Origin: Steroidobacteraceae bacterium
Lineage (GTDB): Bacteria; Pseudomonadota; Gammaproteobacteria; Steroidobacterales; Steroidobacteraceae
Direction of reading: 5' to 3'
DNA: 64,000 nt
Assembly (NCBI GenBank): GCA_035481975.1
Contig: DATHRC010000008.1
Location: 15,877 to 79,876, forward strand
In this document: one piece after another, positions 1 through 62,178 of the stretch
How positions within the stretch are numbered: position 1 is the first letter of the stretch
Layout: the number at the start of each line of letters is the position of its first letter
Made by a program: the position numbers and the translations under genes
The notes under the pieces: model-generated
What the model saw: the letters and a program-made list of their open reading frames with translations, nothing else
What the model was told of the DNA's origin: nothing
Database searches by the model: none

Positions 1-1519
1 TGGTGCTCGCCACGCCGTCCCCGAACTTCAGGTTGTAGGGGGCGCGCTCGCCGAGCAGGCGCGCGTACATCTCCCCGTGTATCAGCTCGCGCAGCTGCCG
101 GCCCGACAGCTGCGCGCCCCGAAAGGCAAACGGCTCATCGGCGTGCGCGCCGAAGTGCGCCAGCCCCATGGTCAGCTCATCGTGGTTCTGCAGCGCGTGG
201 ATCAGCCGGGCCGGATCGATGCTGTAGGTGCGCATGAGCTTGAACACCAGGCGCAGCAGCTCGGCATCGCCGGTCAGCAGCGCCTCATCATAGGCGGGCC
301 GCGTCACGAAGTCGTAGGACAGATCCGGACCGCCCCCGCGCGCCATCTCGCGGATGACGTCGAAGGGCAGGGCGAGCTCCTCGAAGGTGAATCCGCCCAG
401 CTTGCGCACCATGTCGGCGATCAGTTGATTCGCCGTCAGCGACAGGGGATGGCCTTCCGACCACACACGTCCGCTCGCCTCGCGCTCGATCCCGAGCAGC
501 CCGTTGGCATCGAGCCGCAGCATCCCATCGCCGAGCACGCCGAGCTCGTGCAGCGCATCGCCGATCACCAGCCGCTCGGCCGCGAAGGTCGGATCGAGCC
601 AGTTGAGAGTCGGCTGACCCTGCTTGAAGTAGTGCAGATACACCCAGCGGCGCTGCACCCCATCGACCCCGCGGACCACGTCGGTGGCGCTCCAGTCGGT
701 GTCCTTCACGCCCGGCTCGTAGAAGATCGACGAGGACAGGCGTCCGACGATGTAGCCCTTAGCCTGCAGAGCGTCCACGGTTGCGGGACTGAGATTGACG
801 GCATCGCGTCCGGCGGGTACCGGCGGCAACAGACCCCAGTCGGCAGGCGCGATCTGCACCATGTGGTAGAGCCCGGGATAGTCGGCGTACGCCCGCTCGG
901 CGAGGCGGAAGTCGGCGCCCTTGCCGGTGTGCCCCGGGATGACGTCACCGATGACGATCGCTCCATGCTCGTGCGCGGCCGCAACGAGATCGCGGTACTG
1001 CGCCTGCGTGCCGAAGGCCGGATCGATCTCGAAGCTGATGCGATCGAAATTGCCGTCGACGGAGGGCGTATAGGCGAGGTCCTGCACGCCGCCCGAGCGC
1101 TTCATCGGACCGGTGTGTATGCCCTGGATGCCGATCGCCTGGAAGCAGCGCCACAGCCGCTCATCCGCCAGCGTGGCGAGGACCGAGCTGCCGGGAGCGG
1201 CGGCGATGGTCGAGGCAGGGTAGGCGGTGAACCACACCGAAGCGCGCGACACCGCGGCACGCGGCTGCGGCTTGCCGTAAGGGTGCTGCCACTGGATGGC
1301 GTTGCCCGAATAGTGCGTCGCCAGCTGCTGCGCCTGGTGCAGCATCGAGCGCTCTTCGAGCCAGTGAACATAGGCGCTGGCGTCGGCGGAGTCCGGCTGT
1401 GCGGCGGCACCTGCGGCCGCCTGCGGCGGGGGCGGTGGTGGTGGCTGTGGCGTTCCCTGGCCGGAGGCCGCCGCAGCGGCACAAAGAAGGCCAGCGACAC
1501 AGCTCAGGAGGCGCTTCAT
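1..1519 (-). CDS. alpha-amylase-family (GH13-like) glycosidase, exported; partial, because the 3' end runs off the left edge of the window
   Basis: This gene is absent from the ORF track because it is open to the window edge. Hand translation of the minus strand from ATG 1519..1517 gives [37 protein letters not shown]...[14 protein letters not shown]...[13 protein letters not shown]. Further in frame I read [19 protein letters not shown] (around 900-958) and [14 protein letters not shown] (around 480-538), which resemble GH13 conserved regions I and II. The start codon overlaps the GH31 stop (ATGA at 1516-1519). Only parts were hand-translated. Confidence 0.75.
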
Positions 1520-8690: not shown

Positions 8691-8750
8691 GCACCGCTAT
8701 CCTGCGCGGAAACTATACAGAACGGGGCGGGATTTGGGCACAATCGCCCG

Positions 8751-27979: not shown

Positions 27980-30900
27980 GGGGCACGCGCAGCGAAGTTG
28001 CCGTGCCCGGCGCTGTCGCGCGCCGCGACCGGCGCGCCGCCGAGCAGGCTCTCGTCGAACTTTAAGTTCAGCCGCAGATAGACGCCGCGCTGCGTGTACG
28101 CTTCGCCGGAAAGATCGGGCGCCGAAAAGCCCTGCACGTTGTAGCCGAGCGAGACCCACAGGTTCTTCCACACCAGGTAACCGACCACCGGTCCCAGTGC
28201 GTACTGACGGTCGCCGTCACCCCACAGCGCATAGCCCTGCAGACCGGCGTCCCAGCGGGGATTGAGATCCCAGGTGGAGCGCGCCCCGCCGAGCTGGGTG
28301 AGCGTGGTGCCGGCGAACCCGTCGGTCCAGTCGATGGCGCGCTTGGCCGCATAGCGCGCGGCGATCTCCCAGCCGCGCGTCGGCTGGATGTTGAGGTTGC
28401 CGGCGACGATCCATGCCATCTCGTCGAGGTTAAGGCCCGGGCCGAGCGTGGTGTCGTAGTCGCGCAGGTACTCGATCTGGCCGAGCGCGTTCCAGACATC
28501 GCTGTTCACCGGGCGGTAGGCGAACCCCGACTGCACGCGCGCCAGCTCGCGACCCTGCGGGCCCTGCGCCCCTTGCAGTCCGTCCGCCTCCTGGTTGAGG
28601 TCGGTCTGCTTCGTATACAGCGCGCGCTCGAGCAGCGTCCAGGACGCATCGAGCTTGTGGGCAACACCAGCGGTCAACAGCCAGGTGTGCGAGCTGTCGG
28701 AGGTCTCCCACTGCGCCTGGGAGGAGGCCTTCCAGTCGTGTGCGGCGGTGTAGTTCGCGCCGAGCGTGATCGCGCTCGCTGCGTCACTGATCACCCCGCC
28801 GAGGGGCACGACGCGCTGCGCACTGGCCGACAGCCCGATACCGTCCTCGAGCTTCCACTGCTGGCGCAGGCCGATCGCCGCTTCGCTGCTGCGCCCGTCG
28901 ATGCCGTCGCCGACGCGGTACTCATCGAACAGCTGCGTGTTGTCGGGGAGCGTGGTGCTCAGGCCCGCCACCGTGGTGTACTGCTGCACCTGCGGATCGA
29001 GCGAGTAGGGGCCGTTGAGGCTGTTGATGAAGTCGTGCTGTGCGTACAGGTGCGTCGTGGCATTCAGCGCGTAGGTGCCGCCGACGCCGTATTCCTCGCC
29101 TTCGCCGGCGACGGCCTTCTCGGCGAGCGCGAAGGCTTCGGCACCCTTGACGTCCGGAACCGGCACGGTGACCTTGACGAGCGCGGCGGTGTAACCGGCC
29201 TGCGCGTTGTCCGTGCCCGGCGGCAGCACCGGGGGCACCGGTGTCGCCGGTGCGATCATGCCAGGCAGGGCAGGGGCGGACAGTGCCGCGGCCGCATTGG
29301 CGTCGCTGTGCAGCACGCCGACCTCCACCTTCGCCTTGCCGCGCAGGGTGTGCTCGAGCTTCACGTCCGCCCCGGTCTGCTCGGCTCCGGTGACACTGTC
29401 GGAGGTCCTCAGGCCTTCCGCGACGATCCGGTCGGCCGCGTCCAGGCGGTAAGCTCCTTTGAGGCCGTACTGGGCTTCGCCGGCCTGTTGCAGGCTGTTC
29501 GGGTTGTAGAAATCCGCATCGGTGTGCGTGCCCCACAGGTGCATCTGCAGCTTCGTGTCCTCGTGCTGCACGTCGAGGCGCTCGCCGAGGCCGTCGCCCT
29601 GCACGTCGCTTGCGCTGCGGGCCACTTCGGCGATCGCCGTGGTATGGGCGTCGAGCTTTTCGGTGAGGTTGACGCCTTCCAGCGTAAGCTCGTTGCCGGG
29701 GTCGGCATCGTGGATCGCGGTGGCGCCGAGGGTGAGCCCCGGGGTCACCTGCAGGCGCGCATCCGCGCCTTCCACCCAGTGCTTCGGGCCGCCGTCATCG
29801 ATCGAGTAGCTGACGTGGACGTAGACCGGGTTGAGGTTGGCATCGACGCTCGGCACCGGATTGGTGAGCAGCAGCAGCCCGGTGTACGGCTCGATGGCGT
29901 AGTCGGTGAACGGCGTCAGCGGGGTGTCGCTCAGGATGACTGACGGCTGATTGCGGTCGCGCGTGATGATGTCGACCTGCTGGCTGTTAGTGACGCCGCG
30001 CAGGTCGAGCTGGAACGGACCGGAGGTGCCGTTGGCGCGGAACTCGACGATGCTCTGGGTGCTGCTGGTGTCGCTGGCAAAGCCATCGACGGTGACGCTG
30101 CCGAGCTGCCAGTGCGCCTTGGCGCCGTTCAGGGCGCGCGCGTACTGGGTCAGCTGGCGGGCCGGGTTGTCGCTTTGCGTGGTGTAGTCGCCATACAGCG
30201 CGTAATTGGTGCCGTTCTGCACCATGACGTACAGCTTGCCGGTGGACTGCGCGTCGAAGCCGCGCGCCGCGGAGTCGCCGTACACCGGATAGAACTGGTC
30301 GGGCTGGATGTCGCGGAACAGCGTGGTGTCGGAGGGCTTGTCCGAGTCGTACGCGAGTGTCAGCAGCGTCGAGCCCAGGACCTTGCCCTTGAGGAACAGC
30401 GCGGTGCGCGCCGCGGCATCGTCCTTGCCGCTGTCGAAGCTGCTGGAGACATTGGCGATCTCATTCTCGAACACGTCGGTGCTCTGGGCCGGCTGCAGCG
30501 CCGACGGATTGAGATTGCGCAGGTTGAGGGAAGCGGACACGAGTCCCACGCCGAGCAGCGGCCGCAGGTTGGGCGTGAAATCGAGCGTGGTGGCGGCCTT
30601 CACCGCGCCGCTGCCGACCGCGATGTCGGTCTTGCCCGGCTGCGCCGGCGGCAGCAGCAGCAGCTGCGCCGCGCCGCCGCTGACGAACACCTGGCTGCCG
30701 TCCGCCTTCGCCACGTGCTCATCGGCGGGGATCTGCCAGCGGCCGAGACTGGTGGACAGCGTGAGCAGGGTGCGCGCGGCCACCGGCAGGCCGTCGGCAT
30801 CGCGCAGCAGCACCTTGACGGGTACCGCCGTGGCTGCGTCCGCCACCGCCGCGGCAGGCGCCTCGAGAATGATGCGCGCCAGCGCGCCCGGAGCGAGCAC

Positions 30901-33765: not shown

Positions 33766-33826
33766 TGGGGTGGGCGCGGCGCTGCGGTGACTTCTGGGCT
33801 TGGCGAGCGAGCGACCATCCCGCAGC

Positions 33827-33854
33827 GACGGGGGAGGCGGGCGCCTCCCCCGTC
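33827..33854 (-). promoter_or_regulatory. strong intra-operon stem-loop immediately after the 883-aa repeat-protein gene
   Basis: GACGGGGGAGGCG-gg-CGCCTCCCCCGTC has 13 complementary positions (realistically an 11-bp stem and a 6-nt loop). It begins 6 nt downstream of the stop at 33861-33863 and lies about 60 nt upstream of ATG 33765. There is no U-tract. Confidence 0.55.
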
Positions 33855-33860
33855 CCTGCC

Positions 33861-36512
33861 TCAGTGGTTCACCGCCACGCCGAAGGTGATGACCGCCGAC
33901 TGCCCGGGTGTCAGAGTGCCGACATTGGCGCTGAAGGAGCCGGTGCCGCCCACCGCCGGCGCGCCACCCGCGATACTGCCGACGGTCGTGGCTGGCGCGG
34001 TGCTCAAGGTGGTGAAGGTGGGGGTGGCGTCCGATACCACCACCGCGGTGGCGTTGCTCGAGCCGCTGTTGGTGACGGTGATCTGGTAGTCCACGCACTG
34101 CGCCGGTTTGGCGCTGATGGTGGTGGCGGCGTACACGGTGCCACCCGTCGGGCCGGTGCAGCCGGCATCGAGCGCCTGCAGCTTGAGCAGCGTCAGGTTA
34201 CCGGCGACCACCGTGGTGGTGTCGACGGCCACGGCGGGCGCCGGAGCGGCGGACACGTAGCTGCCGTTGGTGGTGGTGGCCGTGTTGGTGGTGGTATCGA
34301 CCGCCCCCACCGTGGCGGCGGCCGGTGCGATCACCTTGACGAAGATGGTGATCGACTGACCGGGGGCGAGGCCCGCGCCGAGACCGGTGACCGTGTTGAG
34401 ATTGCCGGTGATCTGCGGGTCGTTCGCATCCAGGCTGCTGCCGCCATCGGCGTCGTAGTAGAGCTGCGAGGTCCAGCCGGCCTGGTTGTTGGCGCTGGTG
34501 AAGGCAATGGTGCTCACCGTGCCGTTGCCCTCGACGACGTTGCCGTTGTTGGTGAGCGTCTGGGTGTAGACGAAGGAACCTCCCGCCGCGACCTGTCCAG
34601 AGTGGTTGGGCGTGAAGGTGAGCGAGCGCGTCGCGTTGACCGTCACCGCGTCAAAAATGGTGTCGGTCGCCGCGGAATTGGGCGACAGCGCGCGGAAGTA
34701 CAGGTTGTTGCTGCTGGCGGCGAAACCGGCCGGCACGGTCACGACCGCGCACACCACCACGTTGCTGAGCGAGGCCACGGTGCCGGTGTTGGTGATCGTG
34801 GCGCCGGTGGTGGAGCAGTTGCCCGCGCCACCGTCGGCCTTGAAGGTCACTGTCCAGCCGGCCGGCAACGTCTGGCTGGAGAAGTTCGCCACGGTGCTGG
34901 CCGCCAGGTTGTAGTTGTCGGGCGAGGGGCCGCGGTTGTTGGCCACCAGGATGAAGGTGGTGCTGCTGCCCGGGGCGGTGGTGTTGGTGATCACCGGGGA
35001 GCCTTCCGGCCCCGGACCCTGGCCCGGCGCCGGCGAGCCGGCGTTGTAGGGGCTGTTGTTGGTCACGTCGACCGCATTGGAGGAGATCGCGCTCAGCGTG
35101 TCGGTCGCGGTCGCGGTCACCGCCGCGTTGAACACGGAAGCGGCGCTCTTCTGCACGGTGAACGGCGCACCGGTGTTGGTGGCGTTCGCCGGCAGGTTGG
35201 CCTTGACGATGACGTTGTAGGTGGCGCCCGCCGCCAGCGGCCCGGTATCGGCAATGCCGTCGCCGTTGGTGTCGGTGAGCGGCGTGACGCCGTCGCTCTT
35301 GAACAGCTGGAAGGTGGTGCCGGCGGGGAAAGTGTTGGTGCCGACGGTGATATTGAAGGTGTCGGTACCGTTACCGGTGTTGGTCACCGTATTGGTGAAG
35401 CTCACCGCCGAGCCCGGCGCCGCCGGTCCCGCCACCGTCTGGCCGGTGAAGGTCAGCGCCACCGTCTGCCGCACCGTGAACGGCACGGTGTTGGTGCTGC
35501 CGCTGACGTTGGTGCCGCCGCCGTTGCTGTAGATGTAGGTCGCGGTATTGTTCAGGACGCCGGCGGCGGTGGCCGCAGCGACGTTCACCTGGAAAGTCAC
35601 CGTGCCGGACTGCCCGGCGGTCACCTGGGCGAGCGTCGCCGTGAAGGTGTTGCTGGCGGCGGTGTAGCTGGAGGTGATGGTATTGGGCGCAGTACCGCTG
35701 GTGCCCCCGGTATCCGACAGCGCCGTGGCTCCCGTGACGCTCCAGCGCCCGGAGCCGGCCACATAGGTGAGGCCGGTGGGGATCGCATCGGTGAGCGCTA
35801 CGCTGGTGGCGGTGCTGTTGCCGGTGTTGGTGTAGCTCAGCGTATAGGTATAGGGACCGGAGGGGGCATTGCCGCTGGCCGCGCTCACCGCCTTGGTGAT
35901 GACCACCGCGGCGTTGTTGGTGACCGTGGTGACGTCGGTGTTGCTGCCGCTCTTGGTGTTGTCGAACACGCTGGTGGCGGTGACGGTGACCGTATTGGTC
36001 TGTCCGGCGGTCGCCGTGCCCGGCAGGGTGGCGGCGACCACGAAGCGGAAGGTCGCCCCGGAGTTGACCGCGCCGCTCGAGGTGAGCGGTGAGCCGGTCG
36101 GCTGACCACTGCCGTTGTCGGCATAGATCTGCACGCTGCTCATGGTGAAAGCGCCGGCATTGGCCGTCGTCAGATTGAACGTGTCGACGCCGTTGCCGCT
36201 ATTGGTGAGGGTGTGCGGGTAATAGACCACGCTGCCCGCGGTGGCATTCTGCGCACCGTTCTGGGTGAGCGTGAGGCTCGCCACCTGCTGCACGGTGGTC
36301 TGCACCACGTTGGAGGTGACGGTGTGCGACACCCCGGAGGTATCGGTGTAGGTGGCCGACGCCTGGTTGCTGATGGACGTGCCCGCCGGCGGCGGGACCG
36401 CCTGCACGCTGCCGACGGCGGCGATGGCGAGTACCGCGGCGACCAGGACGCTCGCAGCACGACGCAGCCGGCTGGTTGCAGCTGCGGACGGATATTGTTT
36501 GAATGCAGTCAA
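33861..36512 (-). CDS. 883-aa exported protein made of multiple DUF11-type (conserved-repeat, Ig-like) domains
   Basis: It has a TTG start at 36512, with GGAG 8 nt upstream on the coding strand. The signal peptide is ...VLVAAVLAIAAVGSVQA, followed by VPPPAGTSISN. The motif recurs as xYxxTLTNxGNxxDTF / TNTGNSTATSVALTDAIPTGLTYV / TVTNSGSSNATAVVVSDATP. Composition is Thr/Gly/Ala/Asn-rich. Confidence 0.8.
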   Translation of the reverse strand: MTAFKQYPSAAATSRLRRAASVLVAAVLAIAAVGSVQAVPPPAGTSISNQASATYTDTSGVSHTVTSNVVQTTVQQVASLTLTQNGAQNATAGSVVYYPHTLTNSGNGVDTFNLTTANAGAFTMSSVQIYADNGSGQPTGSPLTSSGAVNSGATFRFVVAATLPGTATAGQTNTVTVTATSVFDNTKSGSNTDVTTVTNNAAVVITKAVSAASGNAPSGPYTYTLSYTNTGNSTATSVALTDAIPTGLTYVAGSGRWSVTGATALSDTGGTSGTAPNTITSSYTAASNTFTATLAQVTAGQSGTVTFQVNVAAATAAGVLNNTATYIYSNGGGTNVSGSTNTVPFTVRQTVALTFTGQTVAGPAAPGSAVSFTNTVTNTGNGTDTFNITVGTNTFPAGTTFQLFKSDGVTPLTDTNGDGIADTGPLAAGATYNVIVKANLPANATNTGAPFTVQKSAASVFNAAVTATATDTLSAISSNAVDVTNNSPYNAGSPAPGQGPGPEGSPVITNTTAPGSSTTFILVANNRGPSPDNYNLAASTVANFSSQTLPAGWTVTFKADGGAGNCSTTGATITNTGTVASLSNVVVCAVVTVPAGFAASSNNLYFRALSPNSAATDTIFDAVTVNATRSLTFTPNHSGQVAAGGSFVYTQTLTNNGNVVEGNGTVSTIAFTSANNQAGWTSQLYYDADGGSSLDANDPQITGNLNTVTGLGAGLAPGQSITIFVKVIAPAAATVGAVDTTTNTATTTNGSYVSAAPAPAVAVDTTTVVAGNLTLLKLQALDAGCTGPTGGTVYAATTISAKPAQCVDYQITVTNSGSSNATAVVVSDATPTFTTLSTAPATTVGSIAGGAPAVGGTGSFSANVGTLTPGQSAVITFGVAVNH

Positions 36513-50407: not shown

Positions 50408-51841
50408 ATGCCCAACGCATCCGCGACCGCAAGACTGCGTGCGCTTCCGGCGGTCCTGACGCTGGTCGCCGGACGCACCTCGCCTGATCAGCCCGGCACC
50501 GGGCCCGACAACTGGAGCGAGGGGCCGCCGTTCGCCGACGTCCAGCAGCTCATCCAGTCGGGAGTCGCTGCCGATGCGGTGATCCTCTACCCGAGCGATG
50601 CACATCAGGCGGTGAGCTGGCTGCAGGCGCTGCGCCGCGCGCCGCTGCTGGCGCTCGCGCCGATATTTCTCAACCGCTCCTGCGGCGAAGCCGTCGATGC
50701 CCTGAGTGACGGTGTGGCGGCAACTCTGGCGGCCGCAGCTTCGCGAGCTACCCTCATTGCCGGGCGCGCCCAGGCGCTCGGCCGCCGGCAGACGGCGGAG
50801 GGCGATGAGCGGCTGCTCGCGTTCCTCTATCTTCGTCCCGAGCGGGTGCTCACACCCGTGGCCGACTGGCGCGACGAGCGCATCTATCGCTATCCGCTCG
50901 CAGATGTCCTCGGCCACAACGGCGAGGATGGCTTCCTGCTGCTCGACGGGCTGCGACGGCGGGGACTGCTCGAGACGGCCGAGCTGATCGAGCGCGTGCA
51001 CACCTGTCCGGAGTGTTCCGCGGGACAGTTGCTGTTCATCGAGACGTGCCCGCAATGCGGCAGCATCGACACGGCCGTACAGAATTTTCTGCATTGCTAC
51101 GCGTGCGGCAACGTCGCCACCCAGGAAGAGTATCTGCGGGCGGACGGACTGAGCTGTCCGAAGTGCTCGGCGCGGCTGCGTCACATCGGCGTCGACTACG
51201 ATCGCGCCCTGGAGACCCAGGCCTGCAACGCCTGCCGCGCGCGCTTCACCGAACCGAGCGTGAAGGCACGCTGCCTGCGCTGCAGCCAGCTGTCCGCGAC
51301 CGATGAGCTCACCGAGCGCAGCTACTACGGCATGCGCCTGTCGGCGGCGGGCGAGCTGGCCGCGCGCACCGGGCAGATCGGCGACTTCTTCAGGCTCATT
51401 GATGAGTTCAGCCAGGCCCACCCGACCTACTTCACCGGCAACCTCGAGTGGCTGCTGAGTCTCTCCCGACGCCATCCCGAGCTGCAGTTCGGCCTGATCT
51501 GCCTGAAGTTCGCCAACGTCCGGCTGCTCGCGGCACGGCTGCCCCACGGGCGGGTGGCGCAGATGTTCGATGCGCTGGCGCAGCGCCTGCGGGCGCTGGT
51601 GCGCGTCACCGATCTGTTCATGCGCAACGCCGATGAATACTGCTGGCTGCTGCTGCCGCAGACTTCCCCCGAAGGCATCGCCACGGTGATGGAGCGCATC
51701 GCCGCGCTGCGCGATGCGGCGACCCCGGAGGAGGGGCTGCGCATCGAGATCACGACCGCCGCCTTCAGCTCGCTGGACGCGAGCGAGGAGATCACCGATG
51801 CCCGGGTGCTGATGGGCACGCTGCGCAGCCGGGTCGACTGA
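50408..51841 (+). CDS. regulator-like protein: N-terminal receiver-like region, six-CxxC zinc-ribbon module (TackOD1-like), C-terminal degenerate GGDEF-like domain with retained RxxD
   Basis: 477 aa. The CxxC pairs are CPEC, CPQC, CYAC, CPKC, CNAC and CLRC at residues 200-292 (nt 51005-51283). The GGDEF-like fold then reads LICLKFANVRLL...RVTDLFMRNADEYCWLLLP (nt 51599-51640), with ADEYC in place of GG[DE]EF. The stop overlaps the GT2 start (TGATG). Confidence 0.75.
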   Translation: MPNASATARLRALPAVLTLVAGRTSPDQPGTGPDNWSEGPPFADVQQLIQSGVAADAVILYPSDAHQAVSWLQALRRAPLLALAPIFLNRSCGEAVDALSDGVAATLAAAASRATLIAGRAQALGRRQTAEGDERLLAFLYLRPERVLTPVADWRDERIYRYPLADVLGHNGEDGFLLLDGLRRRGLLETAELIERVHTCPECSAGQLLFIETCPQCGSIDTAVQNFLHCYACGNVATQEEYLRADGLSCPKCSARLRHIGVDYDRALETQACNACRARFTEPSVKARCLRCSQLSATDELTERSYYGMRLSAAGELAARTGQIGDFFRLIDEFSQAHPTYFTGNLEWLLSLSRRHPELQFGLICLKFANVRLLAARLPHGRVAQMFDALAQRLRALVRVTDLFMRNADEYCWLLLPQTSPEGIATVMERIAALRDAATPEEGLRIEITTAAFSSLDASEEITDARVLMGTLRSRVD

Positions 51842-53181
51842 TGGACGTGCTGCTCACATTCGGTGATGCCGCGCTGACCTTGCGGCAGCTGCTGGAGACG
51901 GCGTGGTACTCCGACTGGACGAGCGTTGCGCTCAAGTTCTTTCCCTTCGTGCTGCTGTTCGAGCTGCCGCTGCAGCTGCTGGTGATGCTGGGGGCGGTGC
52001 GCCACTACCTCGAGGCCCGCGGCGCGCGCCAGCCGTTGAACTTCAATCCGCGGGTGTCGTGCATCATCACCTGTTACTCCGAAGGCGCCGACGTGCGGCA
52101 CACCGTGCGCACGCTCACCGAACAGCTCTATGACGGCCAGATCGAGATGCTGGCGGTGGTGGACGGCGCGGTGCAGAACCGCGAGACCCTCGCGGCGCTG
52201 CGCGCGCTGCAGGCCTACGTCGACACGCGCCGCGACCGCCGGCTGGAGATCGTTCCCAAGCTGCAGCGCGGTGGGCGCGTCTCGAGCCTGAACCAGGGGC
52301 TCGCGCTCGCCAGCGGTCAGGTCGTCATGGCGCTCGACGGTGACACCTCTTTCGACAACGACATGGTGCGCCACGCCGTGCGGCACTTCGCCGACCGGAA
52401 CGTCGTCGCGGTGGCGGGGAATCTGCGGGTGCGCAATGCCTTCAGCACGCTGGTCACCCGGCTGCAGGCGCTGGAGTACGCGCTGTCGATTCACCTGAGC
52501 CGTGCGGGTCTCGATGCCTTCAATATCGTCAACAACGTCTCCGGCGCCTTCGGCGTCTTCCGGCGCGATTTCCTGCGGCAGATCGGCGGCTGGGACAGCG
52601 GCACCGCCGAGGACCTCGATCTCACGCTGCGCATCAAGAAATATTTCGCGCGTTACCCGGGGCTGCGGATCCGCTTCGAGCCGCGCGCCATCGGACATAC
52701 GGATGCACCCACCACGCTGCGGCAATTCCTGCGGCAGCGCCTGCGCTGGGACGGCGACCTGTCCTACCTGTACCTGCGCAAGCACGTCCACCACCTGCGC
52801 CCGGGTCTGCTCGGCATGCGCAATTTCCTGGCGTTCATCTGGACCGGCCTGCTATTCCAGCTGGTGACGCCGTTCGTGGTGCTGAGCTACACCCTCTACG
52901 TGTTCTGCGTCTATCCGCCCGGAGTGGTGCTGGGCGTGCTGGCGTTCGTGTACCTGTTCTATCTGGTGCTCGTCGCCCTCATGTACGCGGAGTACTGGCT
53001 GCTCTACTCGGAGCGCAAGCGCCAGGACCTGCGCCTCGCCGTCCTGCTGCCGGTCTTTCCGCTATTCACCTTCGTCATGCGCTGCTGGAACGCCATCGCC
53101 ACCTTGAGTGAGCTGCTGACGAAGTCGCACCTCGAGTCGGCGATGGCGCCCTCCTGGGTGCTCAAGCGCACGAAGTTCTGA
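51841..53181 (+). CDS. family-2 processive glycosyltransferase (PgaC/NodC/cellulose-synthase-like membrane-embedded synthase)
   Basis: 446 aa. N-terminal and C-terminal TM helices are present. The catalytic motifs are CIITCYSEG, ALDGDT (DxD), GAFGVFRR, GTAEDLDL (TED) and QRLRWDGD (QxxRW). Confidence 0.9.
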   Translation: MDVLLTFGDAALTLRQLLETAWYSDWTSVALKFFPFVLLFELPLQLLVMLGAVRHYLEARGARQPLNFNPRVSCIITCYSEGADVRHTVRTLTEQLYDGQIEMLAVVDGAVQNRETLAALRALQAYVDTRRDRRLEIVPKLQRGGRVSSLNQGLALASGQVVMALDGDTSFDNDMVRHAVRHFADRNVVAVAGNLRVRNAFSTLVTRLQALEYALSIHLSRAGLDAFNIVNNVSGAFGVFRRDFLRQIGGWDSGTAEDLDLTLRIKKYFARYPGLRIRFEPRAIGHTDAPTTLRQFLRQRLRWDGDLSYLYLRKHVHHLRPGLLGMRNFLAFIWTGLLFQLVTPFVVLSYTLYVFCVYPPGVVLGVLAFVYLFYLVLVALMYAEYWLLYSERKRQDLRLAVLLPVFPLFTFVMRCWNAIATLSELLTKSHLESAMAPSWVLKRTKF

Positions 53182-53183
53182 AC

Positions 53184-55376
53184 ATGGCGATAAGCGCACG
53201 CATTCTGCCCCGGCTCGCCGCGGCCTGCTGCCTGTGGCCGGTGGCGGCGCTCGCGCTGCCGCCGCTCGAGCAACTGGAAACGCGCCTGGAGCTTTCGCCC
53301 GCCGCGCAGCTCGCCGAGCGGTCCTACGAGTCCAGCCGCGATACGCTCGGCGCCGGTCGGATCGGGCTCGGCGTGAGCGCCTTCGGCAACTTAGGCTACG
53401 AGCACAATCACGACATCATCGACCCGCAGCATTCCTGGACCTACACCCAGGGGCTGGTCGGCGGCGGCCTGTCCATGCCGCTGCTCGGCAGCCGCCTGCA
53501 GCTCGAGCAAAACTTGAGCGAGCAGCAGGTGCAGCTCGCGCTCCTCGACGCGCGCCGGCAGCTGCAGCGGCGCGAGCTGCTGGCGCGCCTGCGCAAGGCG
53601 TACGCCGACTACTGGCAGGCGCAGCGCCTGGAACTCCTCGCGCAGAGTTACCTGCAGGAAGAGCCCGGCTTCGAGCACGTGGCGGAGCTGCGCACCCGCG
53701 CCGGGCTGCTGCTGGATGCGGATCGCATCGAGCTGCTCAGCGGCTTTTCGCTGGCACGGCGCGATGAGGCGGCCGGCGGCGCGGACCGCGAGGTGGCGCT
53801 TGGGCTGATGCGCGAGCTCACCGGGCAGGATCTGGACGGCGGCATCGCCGTGCGGCCGCTGGTCTCGGCGGAGTGCGTCGGCACGGCGTCCCCGGACGAT
53901 GACTGGGCGGACACCGATCCGGAGCTCACCGGACTACAGCAGGTCATCGCGCTGCGCGAAGCCAGCCCCCGTGACAGCGCGCTCTATCCCGTGCAGTCGA
54001 GCGTTCAGCTCGGCTACTCCTCCCTCGAGGACTGGCCGACCGGGCAGCACGGGGCATCGGCGGTCCTGAGCTGGACGTTCCAGGTGCCGCTCGAATACGG
54101 CACGCAGCGCCGGCTCCTCGCCCGCGCCGCGTCTGCGCAGGTGGCCCACGCCCGCCTCGAGTACGAGATGCGACGCCAGGAGCTGCACCAGCAGCGCAGC
54201 GAGCTCGTCGGGCGCGCCCAGGTGCTGCGCCAGTCCACCGAATTCGCTGCCACGCGGCTCGCCGCCGCCGATGCCGCCGTGCAGGAGCGTGGCCTGCGGG
54301 CGGCGAGGCTCGGTGGCGATGTCGCCGAGCAACTGCAGCGCGCACGCCTGCAGCGCTACAACGCGGCCAAGGCACTCGCAGAAGCCGACAAGGCGCTGGT
54401 GTACTGGTATGCCGACTGGGCACGCTTCGAGACGGCACCGTGTGAGTCGGCGCCGAATGCCTTCCGGCAGCGGCTGCCCGAGGGCATCGCTGCCGGGCGG
54501 CCGCTGCTGCTGCCGGTGGCGAGCGTGCCGGGCACCGCGGCTGCGATGCCGGCCGCCGCGGCCGCCGCGCCTGCCGAGCTGCGCGCCGATCGCGCACTGT
54601 ATCTGTGGCACTCGGCGGACTGGCTCGCGAGTGCATCTTCTTCTTCCGGCGAGAGCAAATTCACCGAGCTGCATGCCGCCGGCATCAAGCGGCTGCTGAT
54701 CTCGCTCGATGCCGCGCAGATGCGCCGCGCCATCGCCCGCCCGGCGCTGCTGGTGAAAGCGGTGCGCAGCACCCACGAGCACGGCTTCAGTGTCGAGCTG
54801 CTGCTAGGTGACCCGGGCTGGATCCGCCCGGCGCAGCGCGGCCGGCTGCTGGCCATCATTGCCGGTCTCAAATCCGTACCGTTCGACGGGGTGCATCTCG
54901 ACCTCGAGCCCGCGCAGCTCGATCCGGCGCCGGAGAAGCTGCCGCAGCTCCTCGCCGAGCTGACGCGCACCCTGGCCGCGGTGAGCCGGGCGAGTCCCTG
55001 GCCGGTCGCGCTCAGCACCCATCCGCGCGATCTCGCCGTGGAGCTGCCCGGCGAGGGCAGCTTCGCGCAGGCGCTGCGCCGGCTGCGGATCTCAACCACC
55101 CTGATGGTCTATGTGGCCAATCCCGAGCGTGCGGTGGCGATCGCGCAGCCGCTGCTCGAGCGTTATCCGCAGCTGTCGTTCAGCGTCGCGCTGAGCCTGG
55201 AGCGCTCGCTCGGCCGCGACGAGAGCCTGTGGCCGTATCCCGAAGAGGAGCGCCGCGAGCGCCTCGAGCGGGTGGAGAGTGAGCTCACCGCCGCCAACTT
55301 CCGCGGACTCACCCTGCAGCTCGAGGACGCCTGGGGTGACGCGGCCGGGCTTCCCAGGCTCGCCACCGGAGAGTGA
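53184..55376 (+). CDS. TolC/OEP-family outer-membrane channel (~430 aa) fused to a ~265-aa C-terminal TIM-barrel-like (glycoside-hydrolase-like) domain
   Basis: 730 aa with a signal peptide. It has two OEP-type repeats with long helices (QLALLDARRQLQRRELLARLRKAYADYWQAQ...; ...AQVAHARLEYEMRRQELHQQRSELVGRAQ). An Ala/Pro linker follows. From about nt 54580 the domain reads IKRLLISLD...FSVELLLGDPGW...FDGVHLDLEP. Confidence 0.75.
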   Translation: MAISARILPRLAAACCLWPVAALALPPLEQLETRLELSPAAQLAERSYESSRDTLGAGRIGLGVSAFGNLGYEHNHDIIDPQHSWTYTQGLVGGGLSMPLLGSRLQLEQNLSEQQVQLALLDARRQLQRRELLARLRKAYADYWQAQRLELLAQSYLQEEPGFEHVAELRTRAGLLLDADRIELLSGFSLARRDEAAGGADREVALGLMRELTGQDLDGGIAVRPLVSAECVGTASPDDDWADTDPELTGLQQVIALREASPRDSALYPVQSSVQLGYSSLEDWPTGQHGASAVLSWTFQVPLEYGTQRRLLARAASAQVAHARLEYEMRRQELHQQRSELVGRAQVLRQSTEFAATRLAAADAAVQERGLRAARLGGDVAEQLQRARLQRYNAAKALAEADKALVYWYADWARFETAPCESAPNAFRQRLPEGIAAGRPLLLPVASVPGTAAAMPAAAAAAPAELRADRALYLWHSADWLASASSSSGESKFTELHAAGIKRLLISLDAAQMRRAIARPALLVKAVRSTHEHGFSVELLLGDPGWIRPAQRGRLLAIIAGLKSVPFDGVHLDLEPAQLDPAPEKLPQLLAELTRTLAAVSRASPWPVALSTHPRDLAVELPGEGSFAQALRRLRISTTLMVYVANPERAVAIAQPLLERYPQLSFSVALSLERSLGRDESLWPYPEEERRERLERVESELTAANFRGLTLQLEDAWGDAAGLPRLATGE

Positions 55377-56443
55377 CCATGCAGGTGCAATTCAAGTCCA
55401 AACCGCGCGCACCCGACGAGTTGGGGGGAGTGAAGATTCTCTATGCCAAGGCGCGCGGCAAGGGGCACAGGCTCGCCTGGTATCTGATCCTGCTGGTGGT
55501 GCTGTCGCCGATCTTCGTGCTCCTGAGCGGAGTGGTGGGCTCCTGGCTCACCCTGACGGCCAACGGCACGGTGTCGCTCGAGCAGCACGAGGTGCGCGCG
55601 GTGCGCGCCGCACGCATCAGTCGCCTCACCGTCGCCGTCGGCGACCGGGTCGAGGCCGGCGCGACGCTCGCCGAGCTCGACAGCCTCGATCTCGATGCGG
55701 CCGCGGCCCACAACGCCGTCGAGCGGCAGGCGGCCGCGCAGGCGCAGCGCGGCGCCTACGCCCAGCAGCAAGCGGCGCTTGATGAACTGCGGCTCAAGGA
55801 GCGGTACGTGCGCTATCAGCGGCAGCGCCGCGACGAGATTGCCGCGCTGGTCGATGAGGGCGCGGCGACGGTCGCCGAGCTCGATACGGCCGAAACTGCG
55901 GTCACGGAGGCCGAGGTGGAGCTGGTGCAGTTGCGGGCGACGGCGGCGCGGATGCCGGCGGCGAGCACCGCCGAGGTCGATCACGAGCTGCTCGAGCGCC
56001 AGCAAGACTCTATGATCCTGACGGCGCCCTTCGGCGGTCGCGTCCTCGAGCTCGGCGCGCGCCAGGGCGAGTACGTCGCTCCCGGCGAGCCCGTGGTCGT
56101 GCTGGCGCGCACCGACACAGCGCGGGTGCTCGCCTATGCGTCGCCGAAGTTCGGCACGCAGCTCAAGGTCGGCATGCAGGCGACCATCCGTTTCCCGGAC
56201 GGCACGCGCATCCGCGCGCTCATCGCCGAGCCGCCGCCACTCACCCAGCGCATGCCGGCGGACCTCGTGGACCAGTTCGGACTGCGGCCGATGACGGTCG
56301 TGCTGAACCTCTTGCCCCAGGAGCGCCTGAGTGAAACCCAGCGTGTCCAGGGCCTGCCCGTAACCGTGCGCTTCCACTACGCGTGGGAGTCCTCAGGCAT
56401 CGGCGGTTTCGTCGGCGGCTTGCTGGGGGATCTGAGCCGCTAG
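55373..56443 (+). CDS. HlyD-family periplasmic adaptor (membrane-fusion protein)
   Basis: GTG 55373 overlaps the upstream stop (GTGA). An alternative in-frame ATG lies at 55379 (MQVQFKS). An N-terminal TM helix (LAWYLILLVVLSPIFVLLSGVV) is followed by a lipoyl-like region (RLTVAVGDRVEAGATLAELD), a coiled coil and a beta-barrel region (ILTAPFGGRVLEL). Confidence 0.85.
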   Translation: MTMQVQFKSKPRAPDELGGVKILYAKARGKGHRLAWYLILLVVLSPIFVLLSGVVGSWLTLTANGTVSLEQHEVRAVRAARISRLTVAVGDRVEAGATLAELDSLDLDAAAAHNAVERQAAAQAQRGAYAQQQAALDELRLKERYVRYQRQRRDEIAALVDEGAATVAELDTAETAVTEAEVELVQLRATAARMPAASTAEVDHELLERQQDSMILTAPFGGRVLELGARQGEYVAPGEPVVVLARTDTARVLAYASPKFGTQLKVGMQATIRFPDGTRIRALIAEPPPLTQRMPADLVDQFGLRPMTVVLNLLPQERLSETQRVQGLPVTVRFHYAWESSGIGGFVGGLLGDLSR

Positions 56444-58263: not shown

Positions 58264-60186
58264 TCAGCCTTTCAGAACGGCGAGCTTGCTGTGGGTGCGC
58301 ACCGCATCGTCCGCATCGACGGTGTTGTCCTTGCGCACCATCTCGGCGAACTGCGCCGGTGCCACGGCCGGACTGAAATAAAAGCCCTGGTACTGGTCGC
58401 AGCCGAGCTCGGTCAGCAGCTGCAGCTGCTCCGGTGTCTCCACGCCCTCGGCAATGACCTTGAGGTGCAGGCTGTGCGCGAGGGAGATGATCGCCTGCAC
58501 GATCGAGGCGTCTTCCGGGCGGCGCGTCAGCTGGTCGATGAAGCAGCGGTCGATCTTCAGCTTGTCGATCGGGAAGCGGCGCAGATAGCTCATGCTGGAA
58601 TAGCCGGTGCCGAAGTCATCGACCGAGACCAGCACGCCCATGCGGCTGATCGCTTCCAGAATGTGCACTGATTCTTCCGCATCGCTCATGACCGCCGTCT
58701 CGGTGAGCTCGACCTCGAGCAGCTGCGGGTCGAGGCCCGATGCGTCCAGCGCGCGGCGGATCTGCTTCACCAGGTCGGTCAGGCGGAACTGCGAGGGCGC
58801 GAGGTTGACGGCGATCCGTAGCGGTCGCAACCCTTCGCGTTTCCAGGCCTGCGCCTGGCGGCAGGCTTCCGACAGCACCCACTCGCCGATGGCATCGAGC
58901 AGGCCGCACTCTTCAGCCAGAGGAATGAATTCCGCCGGCGGCAGCAGCCCGCGCTGCGGATGGCGCCAGCGGATCAGCGCCTCAGCGCTGTGGATGCGCC
59001 CGGTGGCGGTGTCGACCTTCGGCTGGTAGTGCAGCTCGAACTGCGCGTTGCGCAGCGCCTCGTGCAGCTCGCTTTCGAACTTTACCCGCTCCTGGGTGAT
59101 CGTGCCCATGCTCTCGGCATAGCACTGCACGTTGTTGCGGCCGCGCTCCTTGGCGTGGTACATGGCCGCGTCCGCGCGCGCCAGCAGCGTATCGATGCCC
59201 GCGCCGTCGCGCGGATAGAAGGCAATGCCGATGCTCGGCGAGATGTGCACGTCGATGCCGAGGAGCCGGATCGGGGCCTCCATGATCTTCAGCAGCCGCC
59301 CGCCCATCTCGAGCGCCTCGGCCTGGGTGGCGGGCCCGTCGAAGACGATCACGAACTCATCGCCGCCGAGCCGCGCGGTGGTATCGACGGCGCGCACCAC
59401 TCCCTTCAGGCGCGACGCCACCTCGCGCAGCAGATCATCGCCGGCGCGATGGCCGAGCGAGTCATTGACGACCTTGAAGCGGTCGAGGTCGAGCACCAGC
59501 ACCGCAAATTCATGCGCCTGGCGGTTCGCCTGGGCAATCGCCTGGGTGATGCGGTCATCGAGCAGCAGGCGGTTCGGCAGGCCGGTGAGTGAATCGTGCG
59601 AGGCCAGGTGCCGCAGCTGGCGGTTGGCCGCCTCGAGTCCGCGGGTCCGGTCGGTGACGGCCTGCTCGAGGCTCTCGACGTGGCTCTTGAGCGCGCGCGC
59701 GTTCTGCCACTTGCGGCTCAAGGCGCTGGCGGACTGCAGGATCTCAATCGGCTCGAACGGCTTCTTGATGACGATGAGCTTGTCCGAGCGCCCGAGTCGG
59801 GCCAGGAGCTCGAGCCAGTCGTAGTCGGTGTAGGCGGAGCAGACGACCACCTGGACATCGGGGTCGATTTTCCACAGGTTCTCGATCGTCTCGAGTCCGT
59901 CCCACCCCGGCGGCATGCGCATGTCCACGAAGGCGACCGAGTAAGGACGCCCCTCGACGAGCGCCCGGCGGGCGAGCTCCACGCCCTCCCGTCCCTGCAT
60001 GGCCGAGTCCACATCGAAGGTCGGGCGTGATACGGCCGACTGCACCTCGCCGAACAGTGCAGCTTCCGCCGCCGAGATCCGGGTATCGTCGCGGCCCGCG
60101 AGGATCTTGCGATAGTCCGCGTGGATCGCCGGATTATCGTCGATCATCAGCAGGCGGTGCGTGAGCAGCCTTGGCTCATCAGCCAT
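58264..60186 (-). CDS. response regulator with REC, GGDEF and EAL domains
   Basis: 640 aa. The REC domain reads LLMIDDNP...VAFVDMRMPPGWDG...KKPF. An intact RLGGDEFVIVF is present. EAL-domain motifs are EALIRW, DDFGTGYSS and EGVET. The start overlaps the kinase stop by 8 nt. Confidence 0.9.
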   Translation of the reverse strand: MADEPRLLTHRLLMIDDNPAIHADYRKILAGRDDTRISAAEAALFGEVQSAVSRPTFDVDSAMQGREGVELARRALVEGRPYSVAFVDMRMPPGWDGLETIENLWKIDPDVQVVVCSAYTDYDWLELLARLGRSDKLIVIKKPFEPIEILQSASALSRKWQNARALKSHVESLEQAVTDRTRGLEAANRQLRHLASHDSLTGLPNRLLLDDRITQAIAQANRQAHEFAVLVLDLDRFKVVNDSLGHRAGDDLLREVASRLKGVVRAVDTTARLGGDEFVIVFDGPATQAEALEMGGRLLKIMEAPIRLLGIDVHISPSIGIAFYPRDGAGIDTLLARADAAMYHAKERGRNNVQCYAESMGTITQERVKFESELHEALRNAQFELHYQPKVDTATGRIHSAEALIRWRHPQRGLLPPAEFIPLAEECGLLDAIGEWVLSEACRQAQAWKREGLRPLRIAVNLAPSQFRLTDLVKQIRRALDASGLDPQLLEVELTETAVMSDAEESVHILEAISRMGVLVSVDDFGTGYSSMSYLRRFPIDKLKIDRCFIDQLTRRPEDASIVQAIISLAHSLHLKVIAEGVETPEQLQLLTELGCDQYQGFYFSPAVAPAQFAEMVRKDNTVDADDAVRTHSKLAVLKG

Positions 60187-61885
60187 CGGACGGCTCCGTG
60201 TGCGTCAGGGGCAGCGTCAGGGTGAAGGTGGCCCCCTGGCCCGGCCCGGCACTCTCGCCCAGCAGCGAACCGCCCAGGTCCTTGGCCGCAAGCGCGCAGC
60301 TGTGCAGCCCAAAGCCGTGGCCATCCTTGCGCGTGGTGAAGCCGTGATTGAAGATTCGCTCCAGGTTTTCCTGCGGGATGCCGCAGCCGGTGTCGATGAC
60401 GGCGATCGACATCACCCCGTCCGCCGCGCCGACCCGCACCGTCACGCGCTTGACCGTGCCGGGGCCCTCGTCGCAGGCGTACTTGGCATTGCGGATGAGG
60501 TTGACCAGGATCTGCAGCACCTTGTGCTTGTCGACCTGGATCGGCGGCACTTCCTTGAAATCGCGTACCAGCACCACGCCGTGGCGGCTGAAGGCTCCCT
60601 CGTTCATCCGCAGGCTGTCCTCGACCAGTGTGCAGATATCGACGATGTCGGTGATGCCGCCACGCCGCGCGTAGCTCTGCTGCACCGAGACGATCTCCTT
60701 GATGTGCTCGACGTTGCTGCGCAGCGCCGTGAGCTCTTCGACCGCCGCCTCGCGCTCCGCGGAAAGCTCGCTGGCAAGCTCCTGGAGATAGGCCGGCAGC
60801 CGCCGCCCCTGCGCACCGCTGAGGAACGCGGCGAGGTTGTCGGCATGCTCGGAGAGCAGGCTGGCGACCCGCGCAAGTCCGGTGGATCTGGATTTCTTGA
60901 TGCGCTCGCTGATGAGGCTCGCCGACACGTTGACGCTGTTCAGGACATTGCCGACGTTGTGCAGCACGTTGGTCGCCACTTCCGCCATGCCCGCCTGGCG
61001 CGAAGCGAGCAGCAGCTGCTTGTGCACGCCCTCGAGCTCCTGCTCGGCGAGCCGCCGCTCGGTGATGTCCTGGACGACCACGACGGCGCCGAGCGACTCG
61101 CGGGCGGGCCCGACCAGACGCCGCGAGCTGGCCAGCACGGTGCGCATCGCGCGATCCGGTCGGACGATGATGAACTCCTCATCGCTCACCTCGGTGCCAG
61201 CCATGGCACGCGCCAGCGGACGCTGCTCACGCGACACCGGGGTGCTGCCGTCCGGGAGGAACACCTGGGAAGTGATGGGGTAGGGACTGCGCGTAGCGGA
61301 GCCGCGCGCCTCTTCGGCCGGGATGCCAAACAGCTCGATGGCGGCGCGGTTGTAATGCGTCACCTTGCCATTGATGTCGCAGGCGAGCAGCCCGAGCGGG
61401 AGCTCGGCGATCACGGTGGCGAGCAGCGTCTGGTTCTGCACCAGGGCGATCGCCATCTCCTTGCGCGCGGAGATGTCACGCAGGAACTCGACCGAGCACT
61501 CCGGCTCCTGCCCGCCGCCGCGCACCAGCGAGGTGGTCACCCGCACCCACAGCGCGCTGCCGTCCCTGCGCAGATAGCGCCGCTCGACGTCCAGATGAGG
61601 GATCTCGCCGCGCCACAGCCGCTCGAGGCCTAAGGTGGTGGACTCGAGATCCTCCGCCACCGTGAGGGTGGCGATCGATCTGCCGTCGAGCTCCGCGTTA
61701 CTGAAGCCGAGCATCGCGCAGAAGGCGCGGTTGCAGTGACGATAAGTGCCGTCGCGGTTGGCGAAGGCGATGCCGATGGGCGCGTGCTCGACGGTATTGC
61801 GGAAGAGTGTCTCGACATGCGCCGGCGCACCGCCGCTCTCAAGCAGCGCATGCAGCTGCGCAGCATTGATGCTGGCCGTGCTCAT
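60179..61885 (-). CDS. PAS-domain sensor histidine kinase (cytoplasmic; no TM segment seen)
   Basis: The start was moved to ATG 61885 (verified). Three PAS-like segments are visible by eye. The H-box region reads MAEVATNVLHNVGNVLNSV. The HATPase_c motifs are NLIRNAKYA, DTGCGIP and GHGFGLH. Confidence 0.85.
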   Translation of the reverse strand: MSTASINAAQLHALLESGGAPAHVETLFRNTVEHAPIGIAFANRDGTYRHCNRAFCAMLGFSNAELDGRSIATLTVAEDLESTTLGLERLWRGEIPHLDVERRYLRRDGSALWVRVTTSLVRGGGQEPECSVEFLRDISARKEMAIALVQNQTLLATVIAELPLGLLACDINGKVTHYNRAAIELFGIPAEEARGSATRSPYPITSQVFLPDGSTPVSREQRPLARAMAGTEVSDEEFIIVRPDRAMRTVLASSRRLVGPARESLGAVVVVQDITERRLAEQELEGVHKQLLLASRQAGMAEVATNVLHNVGNVLNSVNVSASLISERIKKSRSTGLARVASLLSEHADNLAAFLSGAQGRRLPAYLQELASELSAEREAAVEELTALRSNVEHIKEIVSVQQSYARRGGITDIVDICTLVEDSLRMNEGAFSRHGVVLVRDFKEVPPIQVDKHKVLQILVNLIRNAKYACDEGPGTVKRVTVRVGAADGVMSIAVIDTGCGIPQENLERIFNHGFTTRKDGHGFGLHSCALAAKDLGGSLLGESAGPGQGATFTLTLPLTHTEPSDG

Positions 61886-62178
61886 CGGACCCTGGGCGCG
61901 TCCGGGGGGGCAAGCCGCGACAAAAAAACGGTGCTCATCGGGGACACTTGCGCGCAGACCTCCGGTGCTCCAGCGCCACCGCAAGAAAACGGCTTAACTA
62001 CATAAGCTGGGGGGAAATTGCAGCACGGCGGGCGGGCGGGAACAGCGAACTGGGTCGCAGCCGCTGCGCCGCGCCGGCCTCACTCCGTGAAGCCGGTCCC
62101 GCTTTGCAAGATCAGCAGCCTGGGAATTCGCGGAGCGTCAACGCAATAGCCAAGCTGTCGGTGCGCCCATCGAGCCCA

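Follow-up and report, generated by a model that had tools for sequence, protein, structure and literature searches.

A putative exopolysaccharide cassette pairs a TackOD1 regulator and a GT2 synthase with a HlyD-type adaptor and a TolC-family channel fused to a glycosidase-like barrel

By architecture, the closest described operon to the four-gene block analyzed here, which lies in a 64,000-nucleotide stretch of DNA from a Steroidobacteraceae bacterium (GenBank assembly GCA_035481975.1, contig DATHRC010000008.1; hereafter the window), is mxdABCD of Shewanella oneidensis. There, MxdA is a degenerate-GGDEF protein that binds cyclic di-GMP (c-di-GMP) and presumably sets the Mxd machinery in motion (PMC7666153), MxdB is a membrane glycosyltransferase of family 2 (GT2), MxdC is efflux-pump-like, and MxdD is a hypothetical protein (PMC3691769, PMC7666153). 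Mutants in mxd lose aggregation and three-dimensional biofilm (PMC3691769, PMC7666153, PMC3409153). In Sinorhizobium meliloti, the BgsAB system for mixed-linkage beta-glucan (MLG) was found in 2026 to require TolC, and a BgsA-BgsB-TolC complex has been proposed (PMC13438883). In Thermosynechococcus, cellulose export by Xcs involves a BcsA-like synthase, HlyD-like and TolC-like partners, and a BcsZ homologue (PMC8892547). Genetic support for adaptor-TolC export of a synthase-made polysaccharide, as opposed to export through tetratricopeptide-repeat/beta-barrel porins, is recent and comes from these two cases, MLG and cyanobacterial cellulose, in which the TolC gene is unlinked. With a probability of about 0.7, we read the block in the window as a self-contained, c-di-GMP-gated, synthase-dependent exopolysaccharide cassette with an efflux-pump-like route across the envelope.

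The block spans positions 50408-56443 on the plus strand, and we refer to its genes and their proteins, in 5'-to-3' order, as A, B, C, and D. Gene A (50408-51841) encodes a 477-residue protein with a pseudo-receiver, a TackOD1 domain, and a degenerate GGDEF domain; gene B (51841-53181), a 446-residue membrane-embedded GT2 synthase; gene C (53184-55376), a 730-residue TolC-family channel with a C-terminal TIM barrel; and gene D (55373-56443), a 356-residue HlyD-type membrane-fusion adaptor. An earlier note on this DNA, made from the sequence alone, had described four coupled plus-strand genes, and we find the reading frames and junctions where it had placed them. Its domain calls for all four proteins, including a "hydrolase-like" end of C, agree with Pfam or fold matches, PslG and PelA being among the top matches of the barrel. 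At the A/B junction, the sequence reads TGATG (51839-51843), a 1-nt overlap, while B and C are joined as TGA-AC-ATG, with a 2-nt gap (53182-53183). At the C/D junction, GTGA (55373-55376) offers GTG 55373 as the start of D, with a 4-nt overlap with C. An alternative start at ATG 55379, which is used in the public gene call and gives 354 residues and a 2-nt gap to C, is equally plausible. Whichever start holds, the four genes are translationally coupled. Since the junctions overlap or leave 2 nt, we expect one shared transcript and co-translation of A to D. Terminator-like sites within the block are not above shuffle expectation, and a scan of the block gave no match to a sigma-70-like promoter. 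The G+C content at third codon positions is 0.85-0.91 in genes A to D, the expected level for genuine genes in DNA of 68-70% G+C. A 207-kb soil-type metagenome contig in ENA (locus L001) is almost identical to the window, and relatives are annotated as Steroidobacteraceae.

How conserved is this arrangement? The survey of gene neighborhoods for the four-gene architecture, which the earlier note had proposed, was made with one genome per species, and gene order was determined by tblastn with the four proteins. It returned 27 loci, all in metagenome-assembled genomes (MAGs), from Steroidobacteraceae, other Gammaproteobacteria, Pseudomonadales, Binatia, and Desulfobulbaceae. The order A-B-C-D holds in all 19 loci with enough flanking sequence, which come from four lineages (Steroidobacteraceae, Pseudomonadales, Binatia, and Desulfobulbaceae), and the eight that stop early at the end of a contig agree with it. 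Identities across the loci are 33-81% for A, 52-85% for B, 27-78% for C, and 29-75% for D. Such an arrangement is far beyond chance. Clustering of the flanking open reading frames (ORFs) found no other family in over five of the 28 loci; the few shared families are lineage-specific neighbors, and no transporter or pump gene is conserved beside the cassette in the 28 loci. The four genes are also present on a 4.7-Mb contig (locus L029) and in a Zoogloea MAG. In the Pseudomonadales loci L024 to L028, a conserved ORF for a 149-residue secreted SPOR-domain (peptidoglycan-binding) protein directly follows D (L024:11686-12135), and it might be a fifth component there. A 762-residue TackOD1-GT2 fusion, P0432, was considered as Rosetta-stone evidence and set aside because its locus (L030:8001-14000) is riddled with frameshifts and has all four genes broken; the fusion probably reflects assembly frameshifts or a decaying cassette.

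Cultured carriers were found by tblastn of A against PLSDB. On the 29-kb mobilizable plasmid pKAM345_3 of Aeromonas caviae KAM345, all four genes stand in the order A-B-C-D, C being annotated as a 694-residue "TolC family protein" that has the fused barrel. The other genes of the plasmid are for replication, partition, toxin-antitoxin, and mobilization, plus one for a methyl-accepting chemotaxis protein, and no gene for an ATP-binding cassette (ABC), resistance-nodulation-division (RND), or major facilitator superfamily (MFS) pump was found on the plasmid. The same holds for the window, as the earlier note had claimed: we found no ABC, RND, or MFS inner-membrane pump gene in its 64 kb, an ABC signature occurs in no ORF of the window, and every ORF of at least 566 residues in it encodes a glycosidase, peptidase, adhesin-like protein, or oxidoreductase. 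Another claim of that note, according to which the synthase itself is what adaptor and channel work for, is strengthened by the lack of a conserved pump in 28 loci and by the cassette standing alone on the Aeromonas plasmid; both proteins may dock physically on the synthase.

Simpler versions of the cassette also exist. Plesiomonas shigelloides p1 and a Photobacterium chromid have A-B-HlyD without C, while Aminobacter aminovorans, a plasmid of Rhodobacteraceae strain M382, and Palleronia have triads of a TackOD1 protein, a GT2, and a HlyD protein. These three-gene versions indicate that the constant core is TackOD1 + GT2 + HlyD and that the TolC-hydrolase fusion is an add-on of one large branch. 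In alphaproteobacteria, the TackOD1 proteins at L039:5095-6792, L038:5554-6945, and L037:5764-7017 are without the RxxD motif described below for A, and the one from Palleronia includes a true receiver domain and is encoded among two-component genes. Hence, the signal input to the same core appears to be swappable. On the Rhodobacteraceae M382 plasmid, galE (UDP-glucose 4-epimerase; L037:9376-10386) lies directly 3' of the triad, a possible hint at the sugar precursor in that case.

Protein B belongs to the Pfam GT2 families (Glyco_trans_2_3, E=8e-21; Chitin_synth_2, E=5e-15). Its predicted topology comprises an N-terminal transmembrane helix at about residues 29-54 and a C-terminal transmembrane bundle at about 329-415. 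Invariant motifs are D108, D166-G-D168, GAFG, A256-E257-D258 (in the context GTAEDLD), and Q299RLRW303. Thus, the D, DxD, and QRLRW motifs named in the earlier note stand and are invariant, but its "TED" is in fact AED. The D, DxD, ED, and QxxRW motifs, together with transmembrane helices on both sides of the glycosyltransferase domain, are those of processive GT2 enzymes. The best curated family is PgaC_IcaA (NCBIfam TIGR03937), which matches B end to end (E=5e-45) with 154 bits against an equivalog cut-off of 422 bits; NodC comes second (E=5e-26), and CelA barely matches (E=4.5e-4). By sequence, the nearest solved structures are an archaeal GT2 and hyaluronan synthases. These findings support B being a processive, membrane-translocating synthase of the poly-N-acetylglucosamine (PNAG)/chitin/hyaluronan branch. 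They leave the sugar unfixed, as the earlier note had said of the PgaC/NodC-like motifs. A slight leaning of B toward models of PNAG/NodC type is a hint of a beta-linked polymer, possibly containing N-acetylhexosamine.

Protein A is predicted to be cytoplasmic, as no transmembrane segment was found in it. Pfam identifies TackOD1 (E=7.5e-63, residues 128-310) and GGDEF (E=8e-6), the latter over profile positions 14-110 of 161 only. In an AlphaFold2 model of A, with a predicted local distance difference test score (pLDDT) of 80.6, a receiver-like beta/alpha domain at the N-terminus precedes a zinc-ribbon region rich in beta-structure, and the C-terminus adopts a GGDEF fold; the best full-length fold match is PleD. 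The receiver-like domain, of flavodoxin-like type (50441-50782), has strands and helices in alternation over modeled residues 15-124, and we found neither a conserved acidic pocket nor a phospho-acceptor Asp in it in the homologue alignment. The TackOD1 zinc-ribbon domain (50789-51337) has six CxxC motifs, beginning at residues 200, 214, 230, 250, 273, and 289, and a HIGVDYDR motif; the Cys motifs and HIGVDYDR are invariant across at least 20 homologues. The degenerate GGDEF domain (51410-51838) superposes on isolated GGDEF domains with template-modeling scores (TM-scores) of 0.65-0.70 and root-mean-square deviations of 3.1-3.6 Å, and it has lost the active-site motif: the GG[DE]EF position reads NADEY in the window and DDDAC, AEGEW, SAQTI, and others in homologues, without conservation. 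By contrast, the RxxD I-site, R399-V-T-D402 (51602-51613), a predicted c-di-GMP site, is kept. R399 and D402 are invariant in the alignment of A and in all gamma-, beta-, and deltaproteobacterial homologues. Since GG[DE]EF is lost and RxxD is kept, A looks like an I-site c-di-GMP receptor, by likeness to PelD and BcsE, rather than a cyclase. The function of TackOD1 was called obscure in 2018, in a paper that noted frequent bacterial fusions of the domain with GGDEF (PMC5847659). That paper was the only one we found naming TackOD1, and our search gave no published link of the domain to polysaccharide synthases.

The N-terminal part of C (53184-54443) consists of a signal peptide and a TolC-family outer-membrane channel. 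The signal peptide covers residues 1-25 (cleavage ALA|LPP), and the sole hydrophobic segment is residues 7-25. Pfam OEP matches in two stretches (E=8.3e-10, 39 bits against a gathering cut-off of 22), homologues carry the NCBI name "TolC family protein," and the Aeromonas homologue also has OEP. This part is followed by an Ala/Pro-rich variable linker (54444-54587), defined by gapped, unconserved alignment columns, whose length differs among loci and is longest in Pseudomonadales.

Beyond the linker, C ends in a modeled TIM barrel of eight strands and about 260 residues (54588-55376) with a glycoside-hydrolase-like active site. The AlphaFold2 model of this barrel, built with the alignment, has a pLDDT of 87.9 and a predicted TM-score of 0.85. 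A Pfam search with 16 barrel members gave no match at E<=10, and a barrel profile gave chance-level matches only against PDB sequences. Foldseek placed PslG (GH39) first (E about 1e-7, TM-score 0.54-0.58), with a GH5_18 enzyme in the same TM-score range, the PelA hydrolase domain, a hexosaminidase, and O-GlcNAcases among further matches. Retaining glycosidases of clan GH-A are recognized by a pair of Glu residues, one after strand beta4 and one after beta7, together with a Tyr on beta6 and a Trp on beta8. The modeled barrel of C is a (beta/alpha)8 fold with Glu at both positions. The invariant motifs HLD[LI]E and S-[LVI]-E place E575 and E673 directly after strands 4 and 7; H-x-R, also invariant, comes after strand 5, and strands 6 and 8 bear TLM-x-Y (Y643) and W717, which are invariant as well. 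In the numbering of the model, strands 108-112 and 205-210 are followed by E114 (E575) and E212 (E673). From conservation and the model, E575 (54906-54908) and E673 (55200-55202) are candidate catalytic residues. These invariants hold down to 27-30% identity, also in the Aeromonas and Zoogloea proteins. We found no significant similarity to a GH-A member family in Pfam or PDB sequences. The motif FDGvHLDLEP (window 54891-54920, residues 570-579) resembles the GH18 catalytic box FDGLDLDWEYP of chitotriosidase, and the strand-6 element LMxY is similar to MxYD of GH18. Membership of GH18 is not supported, and the resemblance serves as a lead only, as the chitotriosidase profile alignment has a non-significant E=1.8 and no GH18 enzyme is among the top 50 fold matches.

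We wondered how widespread this barrel might be. An exhaustive profile search found it in 763 representative clusters, 193 of them at E<=1e-30, nearly always C-terminal in proteins of 660-880 residues, that is, fused as in the window. There is no named Shewanella member among the low-GC representatives of the domain. The C-terminus of TolC-family proteins is periplasmic, so the barrel of C should be periplasmic too. We found no published TolC-family protein fused to a glycosidase-like barrel. As a domain family, the barrel has no name so far; it is a candidate new glycoside hydrolase.

Protein D has a single predicted transmembrane helix (about residues 31-62) and matches Pfam HlyD_D23 (E=3.8e-13) and HlyD_3 (E=5.5e-12), as well as the NCBIfam models RND_mfp and type_I_hlyD, and DevB too. 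An adaptor of this type is linked to a GT2 in every locus, the three-gene variants included.

The cassette might work as follows. The four proteins would be co-translated from a single transcript. Protein A would make no c-di-GMP but would act as its receptor through RxxD and switch B on through TackOD1, for which PelD, BcsE, and MxdA are precedents. Protein B, as a GT2 of PgaC/hyaluronan-synthase type, would polymerize a UDP-sugar and pass the chain through its own membrane pore, as is known for the family. Anchored by its transmembrane helix, D would form a periplasmic sleeve from B to a trimer of C, and the polymer would leave through the TolC duct, as proposed for BgsB/TolC and the cyanobacterial XcsB/TolC. 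The barrel of C, on its flexible linker in the periplasm, may act as a glycosidase that trims, releases, or clears the polymer. In other synthase systems, BcsZ, PslG, PelA, the C-terminal domain of PgaB (PgaB-C), and AlgL play such a glycosidase or lyase role.

The identities and folds of the domains, their conserved motifs, the coupling of the genes, and their pump-free co-inheritance are what we observe, and this scheme builds on them; several points weigh against it. Every step beyond domain identity is one that we infer, from c-di-GMP binding and the contact between A and B to the B-D-C complex, the glycosidase activity, and the polymer itself, its existence as well as its nature. A full-length profile of C gave no match against PDB sequences, hence no solved TolC structure, which makes the channel part divergent. 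The glycosidase matches of the barrel have TM-scores of only 0.5-0.6, the level of unrelated TIM barrels, and the classical GH-A Asn before the acid/base Glu is not present, Leu being in its place (L-D-L-E-P). A periplasmic hydrolase has no obvious access to a chain inside a sealed adaptor-TolC tube. The RxxD motif is missing from the alphaproteobacterial A proteins, so c-di-GMP control is not universal in the wider family. Finally, the host could supply a pump encoded at an unlinked site. In a different reading, the HlyD and TolC proteins serve conventional efflux or type I secretion with a pump encoded elsewhere, and the GT2 is a mere neighbor or makes a periplasmic product. The matches of D to RND_mfp, DevB, and type_I_hlyD and the OEP domain of C would suit such a role, and our view of the genome is limited to 64 kb. 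Yet the strict A-B-C-D order across lineages comes with no conserved pump gene nearby, the cassette stands alone on a 29-kb plasmid, HlyD is always paired with GT2 in the three-gene core, and the TolC protein ends in a modeled, apparently sugar-active domain that would connect the channel with a glycan, all of which renders this reading decidedly improbable. It is also improbable that B makes short oligosaccharides or a glycolipid, in the manner of NodC or HpnI, for export by D and C: NodC and other non-polymer GT2 models do match B, but the best match is PgaC_IcaA over the full length, including the C-terminal transmembrane bundle, and QRLRW and the C-terminal helices, typical of synthases that translocate, show no variation. 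If correctly predicted, a hydrolase domain of endo type dedicated to the system and control through a c-di-GMP receptor would likewise be typical of matrix polymers, and Mxd mutants are without three-dimensional biofilm and aggregation (PMC3691769).

The nature of the barrel and of A can be weighed in the same manner. That the barrel is no hydrolase but binds glycan without catalysis, as a guide or plug, or is a polymer-modifying TIM-barrel enzyme of another kind, is unlikely but has to be taken seriously: it has no Pfam or PDB sequence match, its fold similarity is generic with aldolases and lyases among the matches, and the GH-A Asn is missing. What makes us prefer a hydrolase is that the Glu residues at the ends of beta4 and beta7, the Tyr of beta6, and the Trp of beta8 stay invariant down to about 30% identity and that the top fold matches are exopolysaccharide hydrolases. 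Moreover, to our knowledge, a glycosidase or lyase in the periplasm is part of all synthase-dependent systems that have been studied well. Public annotations name homologues of A as diguanylate cyclases, among them the Aeromonas and Plesiomonas records, and there is a Pfam GGDEF match in A. We regard an active cyclase as very hard to believe, since the GG[DE]EF position is scrambled and unconserved, the profile match is partial, and MxdA of Shewanella is reported to change c-di-GMP only indirectly (PMC3409153) and to bind it as an effector (PMC7666153). Going further than the reading of an exopolysaccharide cassette, these proteins may represent a distinct and widespread trans-envelope polysaccharide machine, in which a TolC duct carries a fused glycosidase founding a new glycoside hydrolase (GH) family (no Pfam model, at least 763 clusters) and TackOD1 couples an input, c-di-GMP via the degenerate GGDEF or phosphorylation via REC, to a GT2, for an uncharacterized matrix polymer that is partly spread by plasmids. 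We put this forward tentatively, at somewhat short of even odds.

The surroundings of the block in the window are of other kinds. Upstream, on the minus strand, are genes for a TonB-dependent receptor, an aldehyde dehydrogenase, and a glutathione S-transferase; downstream, also on the minus strand, are genes for AhpC, GDPD, a REC-GGDEF-EAL protein, a PAS kinase, and PagL. The REC-GGDEF-EAL gene (58264-60186) and the PAS histidine-kinase gene (60179-61984), both assigned by Pfam and convergent to the cassette, are a possible local c-di-GMP input to it. We rejected this pair as a part of the cassette because relatives of each are found in only the closest three to four loci. On the near-identical contig L001, the region of this pair is called as several short fragments. 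Farther away, three adjacent minus-strand ORFs of 923, 2040, and 883 residues (25400-36512), with DUF11, SdrD_B, and SpaA_3 repeats, look like a surface adhesin or fiber set. A GH cluster at 1516-10589 comprises GH31 (1516-4290, minus strand), GH65 (4291-6921, minus strand), and GH127 (7773-10589, plus strand).

Why might this cassette matter? Here, the channel is dedicated and is co-inherited with the synthase in many lineages, which would make for a cleaner system in which to test the passage of a glycan through a TolC tunnel. If our reading is true, the fused barrel is a possible matrix-degrading tool, and the pairing of TackOD1 with GT2 and HlyD would be the first functional context for TackOD1. 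The occurrence of the cassette on a small mobilizable plasmid of a cultured strain, A. caviae KAM345, offers an experimental handle and, if the reading is true, suggests a horizontally mobile biofilm trait.

Compared with known systems, the cassette shares elements with several. With PgaABCD/IcaADBC, it has in common that B is nearest to PgaC/IcaA over its whole length and, if the predictions for A and C are right, that activation depends on c-di-GMP and that a TIM-barrel glycosidase (in Pga, the C-terminal domain of PgaB) is associated with the outer-membrane exporter. It differs in its score (154 against 422 bits), in having no PgaD, deacetylase (PgaB), or PgaA tetratricopeptide-repeat/beta-barrel porin, and in its HlyD/TolC export. 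With the equivalog score unmatched and PgaA, PgaB, and PgaD lacking, it falls outside the Pga systems. In the Pel and BcsE systems, the c-di-GMP receptor that licenses the synthase is a GGDEF domain that is degenerate but retains its RxxD I-site, as predicted for A, and PelA is a periplasmic hydrolase whose domain is among the fold matches of the barrel of C. In contrast, PelD is membrane-anchored with a GAF domain, BcsE is a tandem of degenerate REC and GGDEF domains without zinc ribbons, and the synthase family and the outer-membrane route are different.

Other likenesses are to efflux-type systems. BgsA is cellulose-synthase-like, and its own C-terminus binds c-di-GMP. Maeda et al. reportedly described in 2018 that the Xcs synthase contains a PilZ domain and that the genes of this system lie scattered over the genome. 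Both systems had been put forward as precedents in the earlier note, and both are real and recently reinforced (PMC13438883, PMC8892547). Like the cassette, Bgs combines a GT2 synthase, a HlyD-type adaptor, and TolC as the proposed tripartite exporter, and its activation by c-di-GMP (PMC13438883) is what we predict for the cassette as well; unlike the cassette, Bgs uses a housekeeping, unlinked TolC and has neither a TackOD1/degenerate-GGDEF partner nor a fused hydrolase, and B matches CelA only at E=4.5e-4. In Xcs, an efflux-pump-like adaptor and a TolC-like channel likewise stand in place of BcsB/BcsC, and there is a separate glycosidase (PMC8892547), but its synthase is of BcsA type, its hydrolase is a protein of its own, and it has no TackOD1 regulator. 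The closest likeness is to Mxd, also a four-gene operon, which has the same order of a degenerate-GGDEF effector, a GT2, and an efflux-pump-like protein, and cultured gammaproteobacteria have A-B-HlyD or A-B-TolC-HlyD versions; TackOD1, a TolC component, and a fused hydrolase are not mentioned in the Mxd papers that we consulted. The A-B-adaptor core is most likely of Mxd type, as judged by architecture and by the published descriptions of MxdABCD (SO_4180-SO_4177). Beyond Mxd, Bgs, and Xcs, we found no published description of the exact four-part combination. The novelty that the earlier note had claimed for the whole therefore holds in part: the combination of regulator, synthase, and adaptor is not new, because mxdABCD of Shewanella, which the note had missed, has been described, whereas for the TolC-hydrolase fusion and the pairing of TackOD1 with a synthase we found no earlier description. 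Taken together, what this cassette adds to the known systems is a dedicated TolC-hydrolase fusion, the association of TackOD1 with a synthase, and the breadth and mobility of the whole, built on a design principle that Mxd, Bgs, and Xcs had already made known.

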